Shown: positions 7,465 through 49,852 of the stretch, one piece after another
Layout of the letters: each line of letters starts with the position of its first letter
Numbering within the stretch: the stretch's first letter is position 1
Origin: an uncultured Sulfitobacter sp.
Lineage (GTDB): Bacteria > Pseudomonadota > Alphaproteobacteria > Rhodobacterales > Rhodobacteraceae
Direction of reading: 5' to 3'
Assembly (NCBI GenBank): GCA_937138475.1
Contig: CAKZPD010000015.1
Location: 6,256 to 70,255 of the forward strand
Length of the DNA: 64,000 nt
Translations under genes and position numbers: made by a program
The notes under the pieces: model-generated
Told to the model about the DNA's origin: nothing
Databases searched by the model: none
The model's input: only the letters and a program-made list of their open reading frames with translations

Positions 7465-8939
7465 ACCGCAAGGGTGGCTTGGACCGCCCTGCCCCATGCT
7501 TGGTATTTTCGCGCGCGGATTTCTGGGGCCATGGCCGGTGAAAATCGCCGTTCGGCCTGCCAATTTGCCTGAAAACCGCTTTGGTCTGGATAGATACCCG
7601 CCTGCATACCCGCCAGCCACGCGGCCCCCAGCGCCGTTGTTTCAAGGGTCTTGGGGCGCTCGACCGGGGCGTTAATCATATCGGACAGAAATTGCATGGT
7701 CCAATCCGACGCGGCCATGCCCCCATCGACCTTCAAAACCTGAAGCGCGCCCCAATCTTGGGTCATTGCCTCGATCAGGTCGCGCGATTGCAGCCCCACG
7801 CTTTCAAGGGCGGCGCGGGCAATTTCGCGCCGCGTGGTGCCGCGCGTCAGGCCAAAGATTGCGCCGCGGCACTGCGGGTTCCAATACGGCGCCCCAAGGC
7901 CGGTGAAGGCCGGCACAAAAGTGACCTGCTGATCGGGGTCCGAGGTCTTGGCCAATGTCTCGGATTGGCTGGCCGTGTCGATGATGTTCAAACCATCGCG
8001 CAACCACTGAACCGCCGCCCCCGCCACAAAGATCGACCCCTCAAGCGCGTAAGACGCGGTTCCGTTGAATTGAAAGGCAATGGTGGTCAGCAGCCGCGCC
8101 TGCGATTGAACCGCCTGCCTGCCGGTGTTCATCAGGGCAAAACAGCCGGTGCCATAGGTGGCCTTGATCATGCCCGGTTGAAAGCACGCCTGCCCGATGG
8201 CGGCGGCCTGTTGATCGCCGGCAACGCCCAAGATCGGGATTTCAGCCCCCAGAATGCTGGGATCAAGCTGTCCGAAATGACCGGCGCAATCTTGCACCTG
8301 CGGCAGCATTTGCATGGGAATATCAAGGGCTTTGCAGATATCAGGGCACCAGTGACCCTTGTGAATGTCAAAGATCATCGTGCGTGATGCGTTGGTGGCA
8401 TCGCAGACATGTGCGGCCCCGCCGGTTAGGCGCCAGATCAAAAAGCTGTCGACAGTGCCGAACAAAAGCTGCCCGTTTTCGGCCTTGGCGCGCGCGCCGG
8501 CATGATGATCCAGGATCCACTTGATCTTGGTGCCGGAAAAATAAGGATCCAACAGCAAACCGGTGCGGGCGGTGATTGTCGGGCCAAGCCCCTGTTGTTC
8601 CAGCGCGGCGCAAGTGTCTTGGGTGCGTCGGTCCTGCCAGACGATGGCACGCCCCACCGGCTGGCCGGTGGTTTTATCCCAAACCACCGTCGTTTCGCGT
8701 TGATTGGTGATGCCGATGGCCGCGATCTGATCGGCGGTGATCCCCGCCTTGGCCACCGCCTCGCGCAGCGCGCGCAGCACCCCCTGCCAGATGTCTTCCG
8801 GGTCGTGTTCAACCCAGCCCGGCTTGGGAAAATGCTGGGTGAATTCGTGCTGGGCCATGGCCCGGATCTGCATGTCTGCATCAAAGACCATCGCCCGGCT
8901 TGAGGTTGTTCCTTGATCTATCGCCAGCACAAAGCCCAT
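7461..8939 (-). CDS. glpK: Glycerol kinase
   Basis: 492 aa FGGY kinase with [16 protein letters not shown] at the N-terminus and GTGCF, and GlpK-like sequence throughout. Confidence 0.95.
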
Positions 8940-37644: not shown

Positions 37645-37727
37645 TGCGCGCGGGTGCCCATTTGGCGCCGCGTTCTGTGCGGCGCGGGCAGGAGCCTCCG
37701 GCGGGGATATTTAGGAACAAAAGAAGG
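37645..37727 (+). repeat. Intergenic 'host' repeat, unoccupied copy (core GCGGCGCGGGCAGGAGCCTCCGGCGGGGATATTTAGGAACAAAAGAAGG)
   Basis: It matches the sequences flanking both hairpin elements (rc of 43589-43603 plus 43705-43790, and 49626-49650 plus 49753-49767) but lacks the 101-bp insert. Confidence 0.8.
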
Positions 37728-37763
37728 CCGTGGTTTTCGCCCGTGGATTTTGCCCGTGGTTTT
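37727..37763 (+). repeat. Three tandem 12-13 bp units GCC(C)GTGG(A)TTTT abutting/overlapping the aroB stop codon
   Basis: The sequence reads gccgtggttttc gcccgtggatttt gcccgtggtttta directly. Confidence 0.7.
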
Positions 37764-38910
37764 AGCCTGCTGCGAGCGTTTTGAGGATTGCCGTTTCGGG
37801 AACCGACGAGGCGACGAAGGCCTGGCCGATGCCATGGGCCAGGATAAAGCGCAATTGGCCGTCGACGACCTTTTTGTCCTGGCCCATCAGGGTCAGCAGC
37901 GTCGCCGCATCGGGCAATGTGCCGGGGATATTGGCCAGGCCTTTGTGCAGGCCCATGGTGTCGAGGTGGGCGCGCACGCGGCTTGGGTCTTCCTGGGCGC
38001 AGAGCCCGAGGCGGGCCGAGAGGTCAAAGGCCATGGCACAGCCGATGGCGACGCCTTCGCCGTGTAGCAGGCGGTCGCCATAGCCGGTGGCCGCTTCGAG
38101 GGCGTGGCCGAAGGTATGGCCAAGGTTCAACAGCGCCCGTTCGCCTTGTTCGGTTTCATCGCGCGTGACGATGTCGGCCTTCATCTGCACCGAGCGGCGC
38201 ACCGCCTCTTGGCGCAGGGATGTGTCGCCTGCGGCCAAGGCTGGCCCGTTATGTTCCAGCCATTCAAAGAAGTCTGCATCGCCCAGCAGCCCGTATTTCA
38301 TGACCTCGCCGTAGCCGGCCAGGAAATCGCGGCGGCAAAGGGTGCCGAGCACGTTGATATCGGCCAGCACCAGTGACGGTTGGTGGAAGGCGCCGATCAG
38401 GTTTTTGCCCTGGGCGGCGTTGATGCCGGTTTTGCCCCCGACCGAGCTGTCGACCTGGGCCAGAAGCGAGGTGGGGATTTGCACAAAGCGCACGCCGCGG
38501 CGCAAAATGGCGGCGGCAAAGCCCACCAGATCACCGATCACCCCTCCGCCAAGCGCGATGACCAGATCGCCCCGTTCGATCTTTTGGTCAAGCAGCCAAT
38601 CGACGCATTGTTGCAGCGGCCCCCAGGATTTTGTCGCTTCGCCCGGAGGGAGGGTCAGGGCGCTGGCGCTGATCCCGGCCTGCGACAGCCCGGCGCGCAG
38701 GCCGCTTAGGTGCAGCGCGCCGACCGTTTCATCGGTGATCACCGCAACGCGTGGGCGCCGCAGCAGCGGGGCGATCAGCGTCCCGGCCCCGGTCAGCAGA
38801 TCGGCGCCGATGTGGATGTCATAGGCGCGGCCGGGCAGCGGCACATGCACGGTGGTGACATCTGCGGCCTTGTTTGCGGCAAGGGCGGTATTTGGCGGGT
38901 GGTCAGTCAT
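37762..38910 (-). CDS. aroB: 3-dehydroquinate synthase
   Basis: GGGVIGDLVGFAAA nucleotide-binding motif and aroK-aroB synteny. The ATG at 38910 overlaps the aroK stop by 8 nt. Confidence 0.95.
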   Translation of the reverse strand: MTDHPPNTALAANKAADVTTVHVPLPGRAYDIHIGADLLTGAGTLIAPLLRRPRVAVITDETVGALHLSGLRAGLSQAGISASALTLPPGEATKSWGPLQQCVDWLLDQKIERGDLVIALGGGVIGDLVGFAAAILRRGVRFVQIPTSLLAQVDSSVGGKTGINAAQGKNLIGAFHQPSLVLADINVLGTLCRRDFLAGYGEVMKYGLLGDADFFEWLEHNGPALAAGDTSLRQEAVRRSVQMKADIVTRDETEQGERALLNLGHTFGHALEAATGYGDRLLHGEGVAIGCAMAFDLSARLGLCAQEDPSRVRAHLDTMGLHKGLANIPGTLPDAATLLTLMGQDKKVVDGQLRFILAHGIGQAFVASSVPETAILKTLAAG

Positions 38911-39728: not shown

Positions 39729-41220
39729 TCGCCCCCTGCATTGGCTGGTGGCGGGGCTGCTGGCCTTTGGTGCGGGGGGGGCGGCCGCCCAAGAGCCGCT
39801 TTCGATTATTGATTGGTTGGACACGGTTCCGACCCCCGCCGCGCCGCGCGTCATTGCGCCGCCGGCGCCGGTGATCGTGACGCCCCTGGCCGCGTCCGAG
39901 CCGACGCGCATCGGCCTTGCGCCGCCGCAGATCAGCGGCTTGGCCCATGATATCTGGCAAAGCCTGGATGGCGCGGCCTTGGCGCAAACATTGGCGGGCT
40001 TGCCGGATCAAGGCCTGCCGGCTGGGCAGGCGCTGTTGATGACGCTGCTTTTGGCCGAAACCACAAATCCCCCCGCGACCCCGCAGGCGCAGGATCAATT
40101 CCTGTTGGCCCGCGTTGATATGTTGATCCATTACGGCGCGATGGAACCGGCGCTGGCCCTGTTGCAAAGCGCCGGGGCCACGGCCACGCCGGACCGTTTT
40201 GCCCGGTTTATGGATGTGGCGCTGTTGCTGGGGCTTGAGGATGCGGCCTGTGCGCAGCTGTTGGCCCAGGCGCATTTGGCCCCGTCGCAGGCGCATCTGG
40301 TGTTTTGTCTGGCCCGTGCCGGGGATTGGCGCGGCGCCGACGTGGTGTTGGGCGCCCATATGGCCCTGGCGCAAGAGGACGCGCCGCTTGATCAGCTGTT
40401 GTTGCGGTTTTTACACCCCGATGCCTTTGAAGACAGCCCCCTGCCCGATGTCCCGCTGTCGCCGCTGATGTTCCGGTTGCGCGAAAGCATAGGAGAGCCA
40501 TTGCCGACCCGCCCCTTGCCGCGCGCCTATGCGGTGGCGGATCTGCGCGATATTGCCGGCTGGAAGGCCCAGCTGGACGCCGCGGAACGTTTGGCGCGCA
40601 GCGGCGCCTTGGCGGATAATCGTTTGTTGGGGCTTTATTCGGAACGGATTGCTGCGGCCTCGGGCGGGGTTTGGGACCGGGTGCGCGCGGTGCAACAGCT
40701 TGAAAGCGCGTTGCAAATCGGCGAAGCCGCGCGGATTGAACGGGCGTTGATCACCGCCTGGGACGTCATGTTCGAGGCCGGTCTGGCGCCGCAGCTGGCG
40801 GTGCTTTTTGCCGATCAACTGGCCGCGGTGCCCCTGCGTGGCCCGGCCCGCCAGATCGCCCTGCGGTTGCAGCTGTTGTCCCCCGGATACAGGGCCGCGG
40901 CGCAATCGGCCGGGACGGAAATTCCCGCCGTGCTGCGGGCGCTGGCGTTGGGGCAATCGGCGACGCCCCATACCCCGCTGGATGATGCCCTGCTTGAGGG
41001 CGCCATACTTGAAGAGGCGGCGCCAAACACCGCCCATCCCGCAGACCCACAGGCCCTTGGCGCCGCCCTGTTGACGGCCCTGGCCTTGTTGCAACGCGGC
41101 GCCGATGGCGATCTTGGCGCCTTAACGTCATCGCTTAATATCCTGAATATGAATGGATTTACTGACGCAGCGCGCCGGGCGTCCTTACAGATGCTTTTGC
41201 TGGCTGACGGTGGCATATGA
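39718..41220 (+). CDS. Secreted Ala/Leu-rich hypothetical protein
   Basis: 500 aa with a signal peptide (…LLAFGAGGAAAQEP) and helical-repeat-like composition. Its stop overlaps the xerD start (ATGA at 41217-41220). Confidence 0.7.
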   Translation: MAIDRPLHWLVAGLLAFGAGGAAAQEPLSIIDWLDTVPTPAAPRVIAPPAPVIVTPLAASEPTRIGLAPPQISGLAHDIWQSLDGAALAQTLAGLPDQGLPAGQALLMTLLLAETTNPPATPQAQDQFLLARVDMLIHYGAMEPALALLQSAGATATPDRFARFMDVALLLGLEDAACAQLLAQAHLAPSQAHLVFCLARAGDWRGADVVLGAHMALAQEDAPLDQLLLRFLHPDAFEDSPLPDVPLSPLMFRLRESIGEPLPTRPLPRAYAVADLRDIAGWKAQLDAAERLARSGALADNRLLGLYSERIAAASGGVWDRVRAVQQLESALQIGEAARIERALITAWDVMFEAGLAPQLAVLFADQLAAVPLRGPARQIALRLQLLSPGYRAAAQSAGTEIPAVLRALALGQSATPHTPLDDALLEGAILEEAAPNTAHPADPQALGAALLTALALLQRGADGDLGALTSSLNILNMNGFTDAARRASLQMLLLADGGI

Positions 41221-42164
41221 ATTTTGACAGCTGGATATCCACCTTTCTTGAGGCCCAAGCCGCCGAACTGGGCGCGGCCCGCAACACGCTTTTGGCCTAT
41301 GGGCGGGATCTGCGCGACGTGGCGCAATGGCTGGGGCGCAAAGGCAAGACATTTGACACCCTCAGCCAGCGCGACGCCGAAGATTACCTGGTGTTTTGCG
41401 ACCAACAGGGCCTGGCAACCAGCACCCGCGCCCGCAAGCTTTCTGCGCTCAAGCAGCTGTATCGCTTTGCCTTCGAGGAAGGCTGGCGCGCCGATAACCC
41501 GGTGGTGCAAATCAAGGGTCCGGGGCGCAGCAAACGCCTGCCAAAAACCCTCAGCTTTGCCGAGGTTGACCGCCTGCTTGTTGCGGCGCGATCCTGGGGG
41601 CGCAACACGCACGAGCGGCTGCGCAACACCTGTTTGATGGAACTGCTTTATGCCACGGGGCTGCGGGTCACCGAACTGGTCAGCCTGCCGGTCAGCGCGG
41701 CACGGGGGGATCCGGCGCTGTTGCTGGTGCGCGGCAAGGGCGGCAAGGAACGAATGGTGCCGCTGTCTTCGTCGGCCCGCGCGGCGCTGGCGGATTGGAT
41801 CAAGGTGCGTGATGACCACGACCAGGCCCAGCAGGCCAAGGGCAAGGAACCCTCGGGGTTTTTGTTTCCTGCGCGCGGGCGCGGCGGCCATATGACCCGG
41901 CACCGGTTTTACCTGCTGATCAAGGAAATCGCCGCCGCCGGCGGGGTTCAGCCGGCGGCCGTCACCCCGCATGGGCTGCGCCATGCCTTTGCCACCCACC
42001 TGCTGGCCAATGGCGCCGATCTTCGGGCCATTCAGATGCTGCTGGGCCATGCCGATATCGCAACGACCGAAATCTATACCCATGTGCTTGAGGACCGTCT
42101 TAGCGCGCTTGTCCTCAGCGCCCATCCGCTGGCCGCCAAAACCGACCCCGCCAGCAAGGCTTGA
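41217..42164 (+). CDS. xerD: Site-specific tyrosine recombinase XerD
   Basis: 315 aa. The N-terminal core-binding domain carries the NTLLAYGRDL motif. The C-terminus has HGLRHAFATHLL...GHADIATTEIYTHV with the catalytic Tyr. Confidence 0.9.
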   Translation: MNFDSWISTFLEAQAAELGAARNTLLAYGRDLRDVAQWLGRKGKTFDTLSQRDAEDYLVFCDQQGLATSTRARKLSALKQLYRFAFEEGWRADNPVVQIKGPGRSKRLPKTLSFAEVDRLLVAARSWGRNTHERLRNTCLMELLYATGLRVTELVSLPVSAARGDPALLLVRGKGGKERMVPLSSSARAALADWIKVRDDHDQAQQAKGKEPSGFLFPARGRGGHMTRHRFYLLIKEIAAAGGVQPAAVTPHGLRHAFATHLLANGADLRAIQMLLGHADIATTEIYTHVLEDRLSALVLSAHPLAAKTDPASKA

Positions 42165-43510: not shown

Positions 43511-43603
43511 CCCCAAGCCCAACGGAAAAACAGGCCAAAGGCGCCGCGCCGCCCTGCATCACCTCTGGAATAACCCTGGCCCGCCTGGCTTCTTTTGTTC
43601 TTA

Positions 43604-43704
43604 AAGCATTTCGGCTTCAACTTGAATCACCTATCGCTGCCTGAAATCAGAGATTTCAACGCAATAGGTGATGAGTGATCATTTTTGGTAAAGCCGAAAC
43701 GCTC
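43604..43704 (-). mobile_element. MITE-like hairpin element, copy A (101 bp, no coding capacity)
   Basis: Its reverse complement is about 95% identical to 49651-49752. It has imperfect terminal inverted repeats, and TA dinucleotides flank both ends (43602-43603 and 43705-43706). Confidence 0.75.
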
Positions 43705-43761
43705 TATATCCCCGCCGGAGGCTCCTGCCCGCGCCGCAAGCGCTGCGCGTGAACGGGGGCA

Positions 43762-43838
43762 CCGCGCGCGGGGGCATCGAACCCCCGCGCGCGGGCGGGC
43801 CTTGAGGGTTTCGGGCCACCCCGAAACGTTCAAGGCCC
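43762..43838 (-). other. Two consecutive GC-rich hairpins immediately 3' of the minus-strand DMGDH-family gene
   Basis: The first is a 13-bp perfect stem (43762-43774/43782-43794) with a 7-nt loop. The second is a roughly 18-bp imperfect stem (43797-43814/43821-43838). Neither has a U-tract. Confidence 0.6.
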
Positions 43839-43843
43839 GCGGG

Positions 43844-46264
43844 TTACGCCCGCAGACGTTCGCCCTTGGGATCGAAGGGTGGCTCGCTTAGGATCACCGC
43901 ATCATGGGGCTGGCCCAGCACCATGACCTGAACCGTGTCTCCGGCCACGGCGTTCTTGACGAACCCCAACGCCAGGCTTTTGCCGACGGTATAGCCATAG
44001 GCGCCCGATGTCACCCGGCCGATCCCTGCGCCGTCCTTGAAGATCGGCTCGCCGCCTGTGGCATCTGCATTGGACGCATCGGTCTGCGCCCCGTCCAGTT
44101 CAAGCAGCACCAGCGTTTCGCGCGCGGTTTTGCCAAGGGTTTCGGCGACGGCGGCTTTGTTCAGGAAATCCTTGTCCATCTTGCACAACCGATCCAGCGC
44201 CACCTCTTGTGGCCAGTATTCGGGCGAATATTCGCGCGACCAGCTGCCATAGCCTTTCTCGACCCGCAGGCTCATCAATGCGCGCGACCCCACCGGGCCT
44301 GCGCCAAAATCGCGGCCCGCATCAAGCAGGGCCTGCAACAGGCGCGCCTGGTCCTTGGCTTCGCAGTGCAGCTCCCAGCCCAGATCGCCGGTAAAGGACA
44401 CCCGCAGCGCCAGCACGGTGATCCCGGCCAGCTCGATCCACTTGGACCGCATGAACGGGAAATCCGGCGTTGCAAGCGAGGTATTGGTCAGGCGCTGCAA
44501 CATATCGCGCGATTTCGGCCCGGCGACGTTGAACCCGCACCAATCTTGCGTCTTGCTTTCAAAGGTTGTGCCCTCTGGCAGGGGCAGCTCTTTGAAGAAG
44601 CGCTTGTGATAGCGTTCGGCCATGCCAGAGCCGATGATCCAGAATTCATCCTCGGCCATGCGGGTGACGGTGAAATCCCCGGCAATGCCGCCGCGCTTGC
44701 CGATCAGCGGTGTCAGGCACGACCGTCCGACCGATTTGGGCATATTATTGGCGAAAATGCTGTTCAGCCAGCTTTCGGCATCCGGCCCCTTGCAGCGGTA
44801 TTTGGCAAAGTTCGAAATATCAATGATCCCGGCCTTTTCGCGCAGCATCTTGCATTCGCGGCCCACCGGTTCCCACCAGTTCTGGCGGGTGAACCCGTCG
44901 GTGTCCTTGGTGCCGGGCGTGTCGGCATACCACAGCGGGTGTTCCCAGCCAAAGTTAAGGCCCATGACCGCGCCCAGATCCAGCTGCATCTGATAGGCGC
45001 TGCGGGTGCGCACCGGGCGGCCTGCTTCGCGTTCTTCGTTGGGGAAATGGATCTTGAAACGGTTGGCGTATTGATCACCCACCCGCGCCTTGGTGAATTT
45101 CTTGTCGGCCCATTCGCCAAAGCGCGCCATATCCCAGGCGAACATGTCATAACGCGTCTCGCCGGTGACGATCCAATCGGCCGCCAAAAGGCCCATGCCG
45201 CCCGATTGGCTAAAGCCGGGAATGATGCCGTTGCAGCAAAAATAATTCGACAGCTCGGGCGCCGGGCCGAACAGCACGTTGGAATCAGGGGACCAGATCA
45301 TCGGCCCGTTGATCACCCGTTTGATCCCGGCGGTGCCCACCACCGGCACACGGTCGATGGCGCGCATCATGTTGTCTTCGATCCGTTCCAGATCGTCGGC
45401 GAACAGCTCGTGACCAAAGCCCGCGGGGGTGCCGTCTTCGGCCCAGAACCGCATATCCTTTTCATAGGCACCGACCAGCAGGCCTTTGCCCTCTTGGCGC
45501 AGGTAATATTCACCGTCGCGATCCGCAACGGATGGCAGGCGGCGGTCCATCGCGTCAATCTCGGCGATGGTTTCGGTGACGAAATACTGATGCTCGGTCG
45601 GTTGCAGCGGCAGGTTCAGACCGGCCATCGCCGCGACCTCGCGGCCCCAAAGACCGGCGGCATTGACCACCCATTGGGTGTGAATATCGCCCTTGGGCGT
45701 GCGCACGATCCAGCTGCCATCGGGCTGTTGTTCGGTTGCGGTTACGGGGCAAAAGCGCACGATCTCGGCGCCGTTCTGACGCGCGCCGCTGGCATAGGCG
45801 TTGGTGACGCCCGACGGATCGACGTTGCCGCCATCGGGTTCCCACATGATACAGCGAATGCCATCATAATTGACCAGCGGGTGCAGGCGCTCGGCCTCGT
45901 CGCGGGACACTTCGTGAAAGTTCATGCCATAAAGCTTGGCCTTGGCGGCCTGAAGGCGCAGCTGATGTTCGCGTTCCTTGGTTTGCGCCAGATACAGCGA
46001 TCCGGGCTGAAACACGCCGCAGCTTTGGCCGGTTTCGGCCTCAAGCTGGTTATACAGCGTCATGGTATAGTGCTGAATGCGGCTGATGTTGGTGCTGTCA
46101 TGCAACCCGTGGATGTTGGCGGCCGCGTGCCAGGTTGATCCTGATGTCAGTTCGTCGCGCTCAAGCAGAACGACATCTGTCCACCCAAGTTTTGTCAGGT
46201 GATACAAGATAGAGCAACCGATTACGCCGCCTCCGATGACGACGGCTTGGGCATGGGTCCGCAT
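43844..46264 (-). CDS. FAD-dependent oxidoreductase of the dimethylglycine/sarcosine dehydrogenase family (DAO domain + GcvT-like folate-binding domain), paralog 1
   Basis: 806 aa with an N-terminal Rossmann motif (VVIGGGVIGCS), the TSGSTWHAA flavinylation-region motif and a GcvT-like C-terminal half. I chose the ATG at 46264. Confidence 0.9.
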   Translation of the reverse strand: MRTHAQAVVIGGGVIGCSILYHLTKLGWTDVVLLERDELTSGSTWHAAANIHGLHDSTNISRIQHYTMTLYNQLEAETGQSCGVFQPGSLYLAQTKEREHQLRLQAAKAKLYGMNFHEVSRDEAERLHPLVNYDGIRCIMWEPDGGNVDPSGVTNAYASGARQNGAEIVRFCPVTATEQQPDGSWIVRTPKGDIHTQWVVNAAGLWGREVAAMAGLNLPLQPTEHQYFVTETIAEIDAMDRRLPSVADRDGEYYLRQEGKGLLVGAYEKDMRFWAEDGTPAGFGHELFADDLERIEDNMMRAIDRVPVVGTAGIKRVINGPMIWSPDSNVLFGPAPELSNYFCCNGIIPGFSQSGGMGLLAADWIVTGETRYDMFAWDMARFGEWADKKFTKARVGDQYANRFKIHFPNEEREAGRPVRTRSAYQMQLDLGAVMGLNFGWEHPLWYADTPGTKDTDGFTRQNWWEPVGRECKMLREKAGIIDISNFAKYRCKGPDAESWLNSIFANNMPKSVGRSCLTPLIGKRGGIAGDFTVTRMAEDEFWIIGSGMAERYHKRFFKELPLPEGTTFESKTQDWCGFNVAGPKSRDMLQRLTNTSLATPDFPFMRSKWIELAGITVLALRVSFTGDLGWELHCEAKDQARLLQALLDAGRDFGAGPVGSRALMSLRVEKGYGSWSREYSPEYWPQEVALDRLCKMDKDFLNKAAVAETLGKTARETLVLLELDGAQTDASNADATGGEPIFKDGAGIGRVTSGAYGYTVGKSLALGFVKNAVAGDTVQVMVLGQPHDAVILSEPPFDPKGERLRA

Positions 46265-46483
46265 GGGGATGGTCCTTGATATGAATTTCAATGTGGCGCA
46301 AATTGCACCTGTTTTTGCCCCCATTGATTGCCCGAACACGACATATTCCGTCGGCGGTTTTACAGCCTGGCGATTATTTCACCCCTGATCACTGACTGCG
46401 ACATGCTGTGTCGCAAAAAAACAATGCAACCGTGTATGTTTCCGCTTAGCCTGCGCAAAACACCCTGAGCAAAAGGCAATCTT

Positions 46484-48892
46484 ATGAAAACCACCACCCG
46501 TGTTGTCGTCATCGGCGGAGGCGTTGTAGGCGCATCTGTTCTGTATCACCTGACCAAATTGGGGTGGTCCGATGTCATGCTGCTTGAACGGTCTGAATTG
46601 ACGTCGGGATCGACATGGCATGCGGCGGGCGGGTTTCACACGCTGAATGGCGATACCAATATGGCCGCGCTTCAGGGGTATACCATTCGTCTTTACAAAG
46701 AGCTGGAAGAGATCACCGGCATGTCCTGCGGGCTGCACCATGTGGGCGGCGTGACCCTGGCCGACACCCAAGAGCGGTTCGACATGATGCTGGCCGAACG
46801 GGCCAAGCACCGCTTTATGGGGCTGGATACCGAAATCGTCGGCCCCGAGGAAATCGCCAAGATCGCCCCGATCACCAATCTGGATGGGATTATCGGCGGG
46901 CTTTATGATCCGCTGGACGGGCATCTGGATCCATCGGGCACCACACACGCCTATGCCAAGGCGGCGCGCATGGGCGGGGCCACCATTGAAACCCATTGTA
47001 TGGTGCGCGAAACCAATCAGCGCCCCGATGGCACCTGGGATGTGGTGACCGACAAGGGCACCATCCATGCCGAACATATTGTCAACGCCGGGGGCCTGTG
47101 GGCGCGCGAAGTGGGCGCGATGGCGGGCATTTATTTCCCGCTGCACCCGATGGAGCATCAGTATATCGTCACCGATGACATCCCCGAGATTTACGAGATG
47201 GGCGAAGAACACCCCCATGTGATGGACCCGGCCGGGGAAAGCTATCTGCGCCAGGAAGGGCGCGGGTTGTGCATCGGGTTTTATGAACAGCCCTGCAAAC
47301 CCTGGGCGGTCGATGGCACACCATGGGATTTCGGCCACGAGCTGTTGCAGGATGATTTCGACAAGATCGAAGACAGCATCAACTTTGCCTACAAGCGCTT
47401 TCCGGTGCTGGCCAAGGCAGGCGTCAAATCGGTCATTCATGGCCCGTTCACCTTTGCCCCCGATGGCAACCCGCTGGTGGGTCCGGTGCCGGGCGTGCGC
47501 AATTATTGGTCGGCTTGCGGGGTTATGGCCGGGTTCAGCCAGGGCGGCGGCGTTGGCCTGACCCTTGCGCAATGGATGATCGAGGGCGAACCCGAGCGCG
47601 ACGTGATGGCCATGGATGTGGCGCGATTCGGCAAGTGGATCTCCCCCGGCTATACCCGCCCCAAGGTGATCGAAAACTATCAAAAGCGGTTCTCGGTCGC
47701 TTATCCCAACGAAGAGCTGCCCGCCGCGCGGCCCAACCGCACCACGCCGATGTATGACATCTTTACCGGGATGGGGGCGGTCTGGGGTCAGCAATACGGC
47801 CTTGAGGTGGCCAATTACTTTGCCCAGGGCGATGAGCCCACCTTTGAAACACCGTCCTTCCGGCGGTCGGATGCCTTTGACGCCACCGCCCGCGAGGTCA
47901 AGGCCGTGCGCAGCGGCGTTGGCATCAACGAGGTGCAGAACTTTGGCAAATACCTGATCAAGGGCACGGGCGCGCGCGCATGGCTGGACCGGGTCATGGC
48001 AGGCCGTGTGCCCAAACCGGGCCGCCTGTCGCTGACGCCGATGCTGTCGGAAAAGGGCAAGCTGATCGGGGATTTCACCATTTCCTGCCTGTCCGAAGAG
48101 GAATTCCAGCTGACCGCATCCTATGGGGCGCAGGCGTTCCACATGCGCTGGTTCTTGCAGCATCAAGACGCCGATGTGCAGATCGAGAACATCTCGGATC
48201 AGCGCACCGGGTTCCAGATCGCCGGCCCCAAGGCCCGCGATGTTCTGGCCGCCTGCACCCGCAGCGACATCAGCGATATGAAATTCCTTGATGTGCGCAA
48301 GATCACCGTGGGCATGACCGACTGTATCGTGCAGCGCGTCAGCTATACCGGCGATCTGGGGTTCGAGATCTATTGCGATCCGGTCGGCCAGCGGGCGCTG
48401 TGGACCGCGCTGTGGTCCGAGGGGCAAAAGCACGCCATGGTGCCCTTTGGGATGCGGGCGATGATGTCGCTGCGGCTTGATAAATTCTTTGGCAGCTGGA
48501 TGTCCGAATTTTCCCCCGATTACACCGCGGCGGAAACCGGGCTGGATCGGTTCATCAGCTTCAAGAAAAACACCGATTTCATCGGGCGGGCCGCGGCAGA
48601 GGCAGAGCGCGCGAATGGCACCGCGCGGCAGCTGGTGGCGTTTGAGGTCGATGCGCTGGACGCGGATGTGCATGGCTATGAGCCGATCTGGCTGGACGGC
48701 GAAGTGGTCGGGTTCTGCACCTCGGGCGGGTATTCGCACCACACCGGGACATCCATTGCCATGGGGTTCCTGCCCACCCACCGCGTGGCCGAAACCCCCA
48801 GCGTCGAGATCGAGATCCTCGGCCAGATGCGCCCCGCGCGTATGTTGACCGAGGTGCCATTCGACGCCGATGGCGCGCGGATGCGCGGCTGA
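46484..48892 (+). CDS. Dimethylglycine/sarcosine dehydrogenase family oxidoreductase, paralog 2
   Basis: 802 aa with VVIGGGVVGAS, TSGSTWHAAG and a GcvT-like C-terminal half. By eye it is roughly half identical to paralog 1. Confidence 0.9.
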   Translation: MKTTTRVVVIGGGVVGASVLYHLTKLGWSDVMLLERSELTSGSTWHAAGGFHTLNGDTNMAALQGYTIRLYKELEEITGMSCGLHHVGGVTLADTQERFDMMLAERAKHRFMGLDTEIVGPEEIAKIAPITNLDGIIGGLYDPLDGHLDPSGTTHAYAKAARMGGATIETHCMVRETNQRPDGTWDVVTDKGTIHAEHIVNAGGLWAREVGAMAGIYFPLHPMEHQYIVTDDIPEIYEMGEEHPHVMDPAGESYLRQEGRGLCIGFYEQPCKPWAVDGTPWDFGHELLQDDFDKIEDSINFAYKRFPVLAKAGVKSVIHGPFTFAPDGNPLVGPVPGVRNYWSACGVMAGFSQGGGVGLTLAQWMIEGEPERDVMAMDVARFGKWISPGYTRPKVIENYQKRFSVAYPNEELPAARPNRTTPMYDIFTGMGAVWGQQYGLEVANYFAQGDEPTFETPSFRRSDAFDATAREVKAVRSGVGINEVQNFGKYLIKGTGARAWLDRVMAGRVPKPGRLSLTPMLSEKGKLIGDFTISCLSEEEFQLTASYGAQAFHMRWFLQHQDADVQIENISDQRTGFQIAGPKARDVLAACTRSDISDMKFLDVRKITVGMTDCIVQRVSYTGDLGFEIYCDPVGQRALWTALWSEGQKHAMVPFGMRAMMSLRLDKFFGSWMSEFSPDYTAAETGLDRFISFKKNTDFIGRAAAEAERANGTARQLVAFEVDALDADVHGYEPIWLDGEVVGFCTSGGYSHHTGTSIAMGFLPTHRVAETPSVEIEILGQMRPARMLTEVPFDADGARMRG

Positions 48893-48975
48893 TCAACGCC
48901 GAGGACAGCGAGGATTGCTGCGGGGGGCTGATGCCCCCCGTTTGCCTTTGCACGGGGCGCTGTTAAGGTTTGCCC

Positions 48976-49578
48976 ATGAACGATATTGCGATCTTGATCC
49001 TTGCGGCGGGGCGGTCGGCCCGGATGGGCGGCGTTGACAAGCTGATGGAGCCGGTGGCCGGGGTGCCCCTGTTGCGGCGCACGGCGCAGATTGCGCTGGC
49101 GGCGCGCGCGGGGCCGGTTTGGGCGGTGCTGCCCCCCAAGCAACCGGGGCCGGACCTGCGCCGCGCCGCGCTGAGCGGGCTGGATGTGCATATCTGCCGG
49201 GCGGTCGATCCGGCGCGCGGATTGTCGCACAGCCTGCAAGTCGGGATCGCCGCCCTGCCCGCCTGCACGCCGGCGGTGATGATCCTTTTGGCCGATCTGC
49301 CAGCGCTGGAGAGCACGGATTTGAACAAAGTTCTGATCGCCGTGCAGCGCGGCGGCCCCGCCGAGGTCTGGCGCGGTGCCACGCAGGACGGTCTGCCCGG
49401 CCACCCGATCGTCTTTGCCGCCAGCCGGTTTGCCGCGATCAACGCCCTTGCCGGGGATAAGGGGGCGCAGGATCTGGCCCGTGATGCGCAATTGGTGCCG
49501 CTGGCCGGTCAGCGGGCGCGCTGGGATCTGGATACGCCCGAGGATTGGCGGCGCTGGCGCGCGCAAGAGGGCGCCTGA
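48976..49578 (+). CDS. MobA/MocA-like nucleotidyltransferase (molybdenum-cofactor cytidylyl/guanylyl-transferase family)
   Basis: 200 aa with N-terminal ILILAAGRSARMGGVDKL and the LADLP motif. An AAGG RBS precedes the ATG at 48976. Confidence 0.75.
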   Translation: MNDIAILILAAGRSARMGGVDKLMEPVAGVPLLRRTAQIALAARAGPVWAVLPPKQPGPDLRRAALSGLDVHICRAVDPARGLSHSLQVGIAALPACTPAVMILLADLPALESTDLNKVLIAVQRGGPAEVWRGATQDGLPGHPIVFAASRFAAINALAGDKGAQDLARDAQLVPLAGQRARWDLDTPEDWRRWRAQEGA

Positions 49579-49650
49579 CGGACCCGGCGGCGCCGATGTC
49601 GCGCAAATGGCCGGGCGGATGGCCAGGGCGGGAGCCTCCGGCGGGGATTA

Positions 49651-49752
49651 GAGCGTTTCGGCTTTACCAAAAATGATCACTCATCACCTATTGCGCCCAA
49701 AATCTCGGATTTCAGGCAGCGATAGGTGATTCAAGTTGAAGCCGAAATGCTT
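49651..49752 (+). mobile_element. MITE-like hairpin element, copy B (102 bp)
   Basis: See copy A. TA flanks lie at 49649-49650 and 49753-49754. It is embedded in the host repeat (49626-49650 and 49753-49767). Confidence 0.75.
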
Positions 49753-49852
49753 TAAGAACAAAAGAAGGGGCGCGGCGCGGAAAATTGCGCCCGCTGGATC
49801 ACAGCGGCCTGCACGGCCAAGGGGCCGGCAGTTAATCGGGGTGCGGATGAGT

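Follow-up and report, generated by a model that had tools for sequence, protein, structure and literature searches.

Families of miniature transposable elements with inverted repeats (MITEs) have so far been known mainly from enterobacteria, Neisseria, pneumococci, rickettsiae, and cyanobacteria. The ERIC/IRU elements are imperfect palindromes of approximately 100–130 bp with short terminal inverted repeats (TIRs) and 5'-TA-3' termini that are found between genes; they are co-transcribed, the transcript forms a long stem-loop, and how the element influences the stability of the mRNA depends on its orientation (PMC2229807). The Correia/NEMIS elements of Neisseria are TA-flanked MITEs of approximately 105–155 bp with TIRs, and their transcribed hairpins can be processed by RNase III (PMC2229807). 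The RUP element of pneumococcus is 107 bp in length, has TIRs, and uses TA as the target (PMC2229807; PMC10969869), and the small repeats of pneumococcus insert into one another (PMC10969869). In this report, we describe a family of hairpin-forming elements represented by two copies, A and B, in a 64,000-nt stretch of contig CAKZPD010000015.1 from an uncultured Sulfitobacter sp. (hereafter the window). Both hairpins are likely to be copies of a non-autonomous MITE of approximately 103–106 nt that is carried by Sulfitobacter-like members of the Roseobacter group and by their plasmids, and the hairpin in the predicted transcript is likely to be under selection.

The hairpin family resembles ERIC in its size class, its TA ends, its sense bias on the 3'-side of genes, and its strand-specific fold. 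It differs from ERIC in that there is no sequence similarity, the hosts belong to the Rhodobacterales, copies are found inside type IV secretion system (T4SS) operons of plasmids, and the stop codon of the upstream gene is often overlapped. The existence of length variants and of many copies is shared with Correia/NEMIS. The Correia TIRs are approximately 24 bp in length, whereas the conserved terminus of the hairpin family is approximately 12 nt, and some Correia forms contain a site for IHF, whereas no IHF-like site was identified in the hairpin family. The two hairpins in the window are nested in a second, unrelated repeat of approximately 38 nt (the host unit), in the manner of the nested pneumococcal repeats. 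A candidate parent insertion sequence (IS) with matching TIRs is available for RUP (IS630-Spn1), but none was found for the hairpin family in the loci searched. The hairpin family is the same kind of structured MITE as ERIC, Correia, and RUP in its size, TA-bounded inverted termini, dispersed near-identical copies, insertion polymorphism, predicted stem-loop transcript, and orientation dependence. Membership in an IS630-derived class is not established: the observed gain misses the value for a TA duplication by 1 nt, and the loci searched yielded no parent IS. What the family adds is a new clade for an already known class of elements, and current ideas are not upset by it. Both the hairpin family and the host unit appear to be undescribed in Rfam and in the searchable literature.

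The coordinates of the two copies and of their surroundings are collected in Table 1. The initial annotation had aligned the reverse complement of positions 43604–43704 with positions 49651–49752, and this alignment was reproduced. There are 5 differences per approximately 102 aligned positions between copies A and B, and realignment confirmed that these are 4 substitutions and 1 indel, all inside the apical 12 nt. The identical prefix of 45 nt was recovered as described, whereas the identical suffix, given as approximately 39 nt, was measured to be 45 nt. The TIRs of the window copies match at 13 of 17 positions, and the proposed three-tier hairpin was found to consist of an outer stem of approximately 16 bp, a middle stem of approximately 12–13 bp, and an apical stem of 5–7 bp. 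The folding energies of the 101-bp hairpin range from −36 to −48 kcal/mol, with z-scores of −5.2 to −7.7 against shuffled sequences; the RNA folds of copy A (− strand) and copy B were calculated to be −52.6 kcal/mol (z −6.0) and −54.9 kcal/mol (z −6.1), respectively. The terminal 17- and 18-mers occur exactly 2 times each in the window, where 0.06–0.22 occurrences are expected, and these counts together with the fold z-scores exclude a chance similarity of the pair. The nhmmer scores of copies A and B with the family profile are 69.9 and 66.4 bits, respectively. In agreement with the initial annotation there is no coding capacity, since the sole internal ATG frame is not conserved between the copies, with lengths of 8 aa (A) and 18 aa (B).

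The limits of the 101-bp element proved to be correct as element boundaries but not as the extent of the homology between the two copies. The boundaries of the family, TA-n-AGCG...CGCT-n-TA, coincide with the 101 bp plus TA, while the homology of A and B covers 43589–43730 (−) and 49626–49767 (+), a distance of approximately 137–142 bp that is 96% identical. The dinucleotide TA is indeed present at 43602–03, 43705–06, 49649–50, and 49753–54. Its reading as local evidence for a target duplication did not hold up, because the shared sequence runs past each TA and continues into the host unit, and the TAs at this locus cannot be read as two independent target duplications. The host unit and the strand-specific, RNA-type constraint on the hairpin had both escaped the initial annotation.

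Support for a mobile MITE-like element, as proposed in the initial annotation, comes from the family rather than from the local TA flanks: the copies are dispersed, the ends are TA, and a locus was found in the filled and the empty state. A degenerate, core-only pattern derived from the columns that are invariant between two hairpin types was used to scan metagenomes. Further copies in relatives, which had been anticipated, were obtained as 30 metagenome matches at approximately 22 distinct loci with unrelated flanks. In the sample Ga0189278 (Sulfitobacter; nearest relative strain G21635-S1) there are 9 contigs with copies that are 95–100% identical and that again have unrelated flanks. The family consensus of approximately 103 nt consists of TA-n-AGCGTTTCG, a variable stem, CATCACTTTTCGCGTTCGACCGAAGGGAGAGGCAGCGAACAAGTGAT, another variable stem, and CGAAACGCT-n-TA, with an overall range of 103–116 nt and a typical length of about 103–106 nt. 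The termini AGCGTTTCG and CGAAACGCT are nearly invariant and provide the TIRs (TA)nAGCGTTTCG...CGAAACGCTn(TA). The dinucleotide TA was found at approximately 20 of 24 5'-ends and approximately 19 of 24 3'-ends, in keeping with the TA flanks reported for the window. The apex of the window subfamily differs from that of the main subfamily. At one of the fetched relative, metagenome, and plasmid loci (designated by L numbers), L148, one TA serves both a newer copy and the older, diverged copy beside it. A few copies on TARA contigs are found in a context that resembles the host unit, while most copies elsewhere are not. No family copy was detected by profile and covariance-model searches in 700–950 kb sampled from other Rhodobacterales genera, which indicates that the family is restricted to a lineage. 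On viral contigs there were 0 matches to the outer-stem core pattern and to the core-only pattern, and the single match to a framework-plus-core pattern was rejected as due to chance.

The mobility of the element is apparent at a locus where the gene order is lepA, a small lipoprotein gene, the element, and a GNAT gene. In the filled alleles (L146 and L171, from Ga0189278 and Sulfitobacter sp. G21635-S1, and a further contig, L172) the fixed anchors are separated by 109 nt, which read TTTC-TA-(100 nt)-TA-A. The empty alleles (L175, L176, and L177) have 8 nt between the same anchors, with the sequences TTCCGAAA and CCTCGAGG in Sulfitobacter sp. EhC04 and S. alexandrii. At this GNAT-lipoprotein locus the element is thus an insertion proper, placed in the AT-rich middle of a spacer that is palindromic. 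The filled alleles are longer by a net +101 nt, where the core plus a duplicated TA predicts +102 and a model without duplication, in which the TA belongs to the element, predicts +104. A TA duplication is the better fit of the two, but proof is prevented by the distance of the species with the empty alleles, whose neighboring protein is only 84–87% identical. Occupied and empty sites, which the initial annotation regarded as the mark of a mobile element, were thus found for the lepA-GNAT spacer and not for sites A and B, which are occupied in all of the syntenic relatives seen (L001, L004, and L005). A second comparison of filled and empty alleles, upstream of yjdM (L175 versus L171), was abandoned since the sequences are too diverged to align.

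A different element of approximately 115 nt was found on plasmids of Aliiroseovarius crassostreae (L181 3000–3116; L182 3000–3116), with 3–5 copies per replicon in unrelated contexts. It reads TA-AAGCGTTTCGGG...CCGAAACGCTT-TA and has the same TA-flanked termini as the hairpin family, but its interior is different and is made of extra internal copies of the terminal motif. Shared termini around a different interior fit the recognition of the ends by a transposase. The IS630/Tc1-mariner type proposed in the initial annotation is putative. Some termini, TA-CAG(C/T)G, resemble Tc1-type ends, and this is a lead rather than a test.

The constraint on the hairpin was analyzed with an alignment of 25 distinct copies. 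Paired cells amount to 96.1%, compared with 33–45% in controls with slid partners; two-sided changes are seen in 9 pairs (48 cells), and values like those observed were never attained in 500 shuffles. Among the one-sided changes, 26 cells are G·U or U·G and 2 are A·C or C·A, although these cells are not independent and correspond to roughly 8–10 events versus 2. The covariance model is strand-specific, with approximately 90 bits for the top strand and approximately 31 bits for the bottom strand. Copy A scores 92.5 bits (− strand) and 31 bits (+ strand), and copy B scores 88.3 bits (+ strand) and 31.8 bits (− strand). The stem-loop modeled for the predicted transcript is supported by the fold energies and by the covariation. 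None of the covariance models in Rfam 15 matched the window copies or a copy from the main subfamily. The strand of the element is that of the sense of the gene on its 5'-side at approximately 16 of 20 distinct loci; if only genes no farther than 200 nt away are counted, the figure is 12 of 13. The first TAA or TAG of several copies doubles as the stop codon of the upstream gene.

The main subfamily matches 29 Rhodobacteraceae plasmid records, 19 of which are typed as conjugative; no match was obtained when the plasmids were compared with a window-type query. In all three of the plasmids examined (Table 1) the element fills a spacer inside a virB-type T4SS operon in the sense orientation, namely the virB6-like/virB8-like, virB8-like/virB9, and virB10/virB11 spacers. 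The plasmid of L178 is typed as mobilizable. In these plasmid copies, too, the upstream gene ends at the element's first TAA/TAG. The middle stem of the plasmid copies has been switched in a compensatory manner from ATCAC/GTGAT to ATCGG/CCGAT, and the AGGCAGCGA motif is kept, with GGCAG retained. One T4SS operon contains a second, more diverged member of the family in another spacer. At the window copies neither a promoter nor a terminator belonging to the element was detected, and there is no U-tract after the hairpin.

According to the explanation that we favor, a MITE with a selected transcript, the element would insert at TA dinucleotides in the AT-rich spots of GC-rich genomes. It would typically target stop codons, spacers that are palindromic, and, within the host unit, the ATATTTA stretch; the window copies would either have landed in a host unit or have been copied together with one. 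Once inserted, the element would be transcribed within the 3'-end of the upstream gene and fold into a long RNA hairpin, which selection would then keep. The hairpin would act in the transcript, most plausibly as a barrier to decay by exonuclease or as a processing site, and in this manner may tune how stable the mRNA is, either upstream or within the operon, as is documented for ERIC and has been proposed for Correia (PMC2229807). The near-identity of A and B would most likely date from the time since the lineage parted from its nearest relative among the species sampled, with the flanks from the host unit being carried along.

Several observations weigh against this explanation. Only two copies are visible in the source organism, within the 64 kb of the window. 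The count for the TA duplication is off by 1 nt, and the exact junction is blurred in empty alleles from species with 84–87% identity in the adjacent protein. No transposase or autonomous element with the termini of the family is present in the window; the absence of a transposase was also stated in the initial annotation, and it stands: the three gaps in the gene calling were found to hold the genes for LptF/G, arginase, DksA, and TfoX. The sole recombinase in the window is a XerD-type gene at 41217–42164. In approximately 1.5 Mb of fetched loci there is no long element with the family termini and there are no TA-flanked inverted pairs at an IS-like spacing; no autonomous partner was found under the 29 plasmid matches; and no transposase is annotated in the first 100 kb of the Aliiroseovarius replicon NZ_CP080787.1. 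In addition, the centre of the hairpin is unusually conserved while the stems co-vary, which is unexpected for a purely selfish MITE and which leaves room for a function-first RNA reading.

That reading holds that the hairpin is a structured RNA, either a cis-regulatory module or a small-RNA family, which is recognized by a protein through the GGCAG internal loop and the apex and which was spread by selection. It would explain the compensatory stems, the strand bias of the G·U pairs, the strand-specific covariance score, the sense orientation just 3' of stop codons, the long retention in the T4SS spacers of several genera, where the changes are compensatory and AGGCAGCGA does not vary, and the second copy in another spacer of one operon. 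It is harder to reconcile with near-identical copies that have unrelated flanks in one genome, with a precise insertion polymorphism in an AT-rich spacer, and with TA-bounded inverted termini that are common to an element with an unrelated interior. One copy is decaying, the apex of the window subfamily is different, and neither a promoter or terminator of its own nor an Rfam family was detected. We regard a function-first origin as rather unlikely; it is compatible with the MITE explanation and does not exclude it. Movement as single-stranded DNA by a RAYT or by a Y1 transposase of the IS200/IS605 type, as for REP and REPIN sequences, would suit the strand-asymmetric hairpin, the association with a REP-like host unit that forms doublets of fixed spacing, and a TA duplication that is not proven. 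The termini, on the other hand, are symmetric, TA-bounded inverted sequences of approximately 12 nt or more, the length of approximately 105 nt far exceeds that of REPs, there is no conserved 5' GTAG/GTGG tetranucleotide, and copies in tandem have one TA in common. A Y1 transposase was not seen (a RAYT gene was not searched for), and the lone open reading frame (ORF) that is bracketed by host units encodes an HPP/CBS protein. This mode of movement is improbable.

The absence of a U-tract after either hairpin and the negative terminator scan also bear on the reading of the two hairpins as intrinsic terminators of the ordinary kind, which would belong to the DMGDH-like and mobA-like genes and be similar by coincidence. 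Both copies do form strong hairpins, and both are downstream of convergent genes, but members of the family are found between co-transcribed T4SS genes, and convergence cannot explain 96% identity over 137 bp or the presence of the family in other genomes. We consider coincidental terminators to be very improbable. There remains the proposal that the copies are the ends of a mobile or invertible segment of 6 kb, either a composite transposon or a recombination switch, with the two DMGDH-like genes and mobA inside. Inverted repeats of 142 bp that are 6 kb apart could indeed support an inversion by homologous recombination. The same genes are found in the same order and orientation in L001, L004, and L005, however, and they are also present in distant relatives that have no element and have extra genes between them. 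The two ends in L004 carry different subfamilies, and there is no inverted arrangement in any sampled relative; the 6 kb that separate the copies are ancestral and are oriented alike in every one of them. A mobile or invertible segment is also very improbable. An integron attC site was rejected on the grounds that the termini are AGCGTTTCG and CGAAACGCT, there is no GTTRRRY, and the nearby recombinase is of the chromosomal XerD type; its gene resides in a conserved aroK-aroB...xerD synteny.

The additional homology that surrounds copies A and B is a separate unit of approximately 38 nt (GGAGCCTCCGGCGGGGATATTT..GAAAG) that is conserved across the Rhodobacterales. The consensus of the host unit is GGAGCCTCCGGCGGGGATATTT nn G nn CA AGA nGAAAG, the length is approximately 38–40 nt, and the full form is GGAGCCTCCGGCGGGGATATTTnnGnnCAAGAnGAAAG; a second variant, GGAACGCTCCGCGGGGGATATTT, was also observed. 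A search of the window with a profile of the unit identified exactly three host units, two of which are split by a hairpin. The third is intact, and a sensitive search of the window found that it is composed of the flanks common to A and B joined without the hairpin, GGAGCCTCCGGCGGGGATAT-TTAGGAACAAAAGAAGG. Judged from these sequences, the intact unit is in effect the paralogous "empty" state. Its use as an exact empty site was rejected because the junction is ambiguous: the empty form reads GGGGATATTTAGGAAC and the filled form GGGGAT(A)-TA...TA-AGAAC, which is 2–3 nt short of canonical. The ssb-aroB spacer of L004 has no host unit, and the boundaries for the insertion of the unit could not be derived from a comparison of this spacer between the window and L004, which is too diverged. 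A triple tandem repeat, CCGTGG(A)TTTTnGCC, is located at 37728–37768; it adjoins the 3' side of the intact unit and comes shortly before the stop codon of aroB.

More than 119 stretches with the host unit were found, among the matches listed, in the species-representative genomes of Roseobacteraceae and Paracoccaceae, and among these a core of 18–22 nt is identical across the Rhodobacterales. There are 9 genuine matches to the exact pattern in viral contigs and contigs resembling gene transfer agents (GTAs). In the RcGTA-like clusters (L010 about 8250–8480; also L011, L013, and L016–L019) the unit is present in the sense orientation between the stop codon of the large terminase and the start of the portal gene, and two tandem host units approximately 95 nt apart lie between the terminase and portal genes of L010 and L017. 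The statistics of placement were obtained from 130 instances. The host units are located approximately 40 nt from a stop codon, divergent spacers hold only 4 of 99 units, and in co-directional spacers there is no preference for a strand (32 versus 34). Doublets occur head-to-head with a fixed spacing of 13–14 nt (12 cases) and tail-to-tail (9 cases). An insert was found in 0 of approximately 115 sampled host units from other genera. The intact unit has no match in Rfam 15, and no description of the unit was found in the searchable literature.

REPs and REPIN doublets are known for such placement and doublet behavior. The behavior of the host unit is REP/BIME/REPIN-like: the length of 38–40 nt, the distance of approximately 40 nt from stop codons, the occurrence in either orientation, the avoidance of divergent spacers, and the doublets are all alike. 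It is unlike a REP in that a single unit is not a good palindrome, there is no GTAG head, and the identity of the 18–22 nt core throughout the order is unusually high for a REP. A role as a promoter was rejected, because the unit is rare in divergent spacers and the gene downstream of it lies on the other strand more often than not. A role as the C-terminus of a small ORF was also rejected, since inspection by eye revealed no consistent reading frame across the copies. An ORF in L059 that is bracketed by inverted host units was considered as a mobilizing enzyme and was dismissed upon finding that it encodes an HPP/CBS membrane protein.

The origin of the A/B pair was addressed with L004 and L005, which represent a relative whose CorC is 93% identical, whose gene order is the same, and which has host units at both sites. 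At site A, L004 carries the same type of hairpin, 89% identical to copy A, with flanks that are 83–87% identical. At site B, both L004 and L005 carry a strongly diverged hairpin of the main subfamily with the same architecture and at the same position in the same unit. The identity of 96% between A and B in the window, compared with 89% for the orthologue, indicates that the pair was duplicated or homogenized after the species split. Copies A and B in the window share the atypical left junction GGGGAT(A)-TA, whereas the canonical GGGGATATT-TA is found at site B of L004, and their 3' pieces of the unit are identical. These 3' pieces are specific to the species, ending in ...AAAAGAAG in all three window units and in ...AAAAGTAG in all three pieces from L004, which indicates concerted evolution given that the units at A and B are orthologous. 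From these sequence comparisons, the composite of unit and hairpin was most likely duplicated or subject to gene conversion, which is favored over two clean independent insertions; an independent insertion of A and B into a hotspot is possible.

The probability that all five A/B differences would be confined to the apex under a neutral, uniform model is roughly (12/137)^5, and a similar apical dimorphism is found between L004 and L005 at site A. Recombination among variants of the family or a relaxed constraint on the window-type apex are possible reasons. The hairpin at site A of L005 is a decaying copy that has lost its 3' arm. When position 1447–1527 of L005 is compared with 11384–11485 of L004, from the same species, the 3' outer arm is missing from L005 and the apex is like that of copy B in the window and not that of copy A.

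Table 1. Positions of the hairpin copies, the host units, and the adjacent genes (window coordinates unless a locus is named).
Feature	Position	Strand	Remarks
Hairpin MITE copy A, TA to TA	43602..43706	−	Reads TA-GAGCGTTTCGGC...GCCGAAATGCTT-TA
Hairpin MITE copy B, TA to TA	49649..49754	+	Approximately 95% identical to copy A
Intact host unit without hairpin (CAGGAGCCTCCGGCGGGGATATTTAGGAACAAAAGAAGGCCGT)	37689..37731	+	ssb/aroB spacer; unit profile 45.4 bits, E 3.7e-13
Host unit 5' part, site A (GGGCAGGAGCCTCCGGCGGGGATA)	43707..43730	−	Profile match 43727–43706, E 1.4e-6
Host unit 3' part, site A (AGAACAAAAGAAG)	43589..43601	−	Matches the 3' half of the intact unit, 37712–37727
Host unit 5' part, site B (GGGCGGGAGCCTCCGGCGGGGAT)	49626..49648	+	Profile match 49629–49648, E 6e-5
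Host unit 3' part, site B (AGAACAAAAGAAGG)	49755..49768	+	Unit search and profile
DMGDH-like gene (DAO and GCV_T domains)	43844..46339	−	Copy A 137 nt 3' of the stop codon, in sense
MobA-like NTP-transferase gene	48970..49578	+	Copy B 71 nt 3' of the stop codon, in sense
Plasmid copies	L178 4002–4106; L179 3976–4080, 4744–4849; L180 3996–4100	sense	Plasmids CP104101, NZ_CP049814, NZ_CP022419

The Roseobacter group is ecologically important in the sea, and the hairpin family provides a marker for the recent dynamics of its genomes through insertion polymorphism at the strain level. It is also a candidate post-transcriptional element in 3'-untranslated regions (3'-UTRs) and in the T4SS operons for conjugation, and the approximately 38-nt repeat, conserved to the base throughout the order at the ends of genes, is offered for testing. 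The loose ends of most interest are the retention in T4SS operons while the stems evolved in a compensatory way, and the host unit with its likeness to REPs. A broader interpretation, which we put forward tentatively and consider doubtful, is that the hairpin is a mobile RNA module recognized by a protein (invariant GGCAG loop, conserved apex), which has long been kept in the T4SS operons of conjugative Roseobacter plasmids, tunes the expression of genes in these operons, and is now seeding chromosomal 3'-UTRs. The preferred landing pad GGAGCCTCCGGCGGGGATATTT would then be an order-wide, vertically maintained REPIN-like system with an enzyme or binding protein of its own. If this were true, the window would display two interacting layers of intergenic "regulatory parasites".

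A few features of the neighborhood are recorded here. Directly upstream of a Sulfitobacter copy, at about 4770–4815 of L143, there are GACATGTCA-type palindromic repeats (gacatgtcatgcatgacatgtcaaaaatgacatgtc) that are unrelated to the hairpin. The window contains two paralogous, divergent genes that resemble DMGDH/sarcosine dehydrogenase (DAO, FAO_M, and GCV_T domains), at 43844–46339 (−) and 46484–48892 (+), and in the more distant relatives L006 and L008 unrelated genes are inserted between the paired DMGDH-like genes. Two strong GC-rich hairpins (CGCGCGCGGGGGcatcgaaCCCCCGCGCGCG and GGCCTTGAgggtttcgggccaccccgaaacgTTCAAGGCC) occupy 43740–43835, between the stop codon of the DMGDH-like gene and the host unit of site A, and are probably the real terminator region of that gene. 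A GC-rich, hairpin-forming sequence that has diverged at several bases is found at the matching position of L004 and L005.

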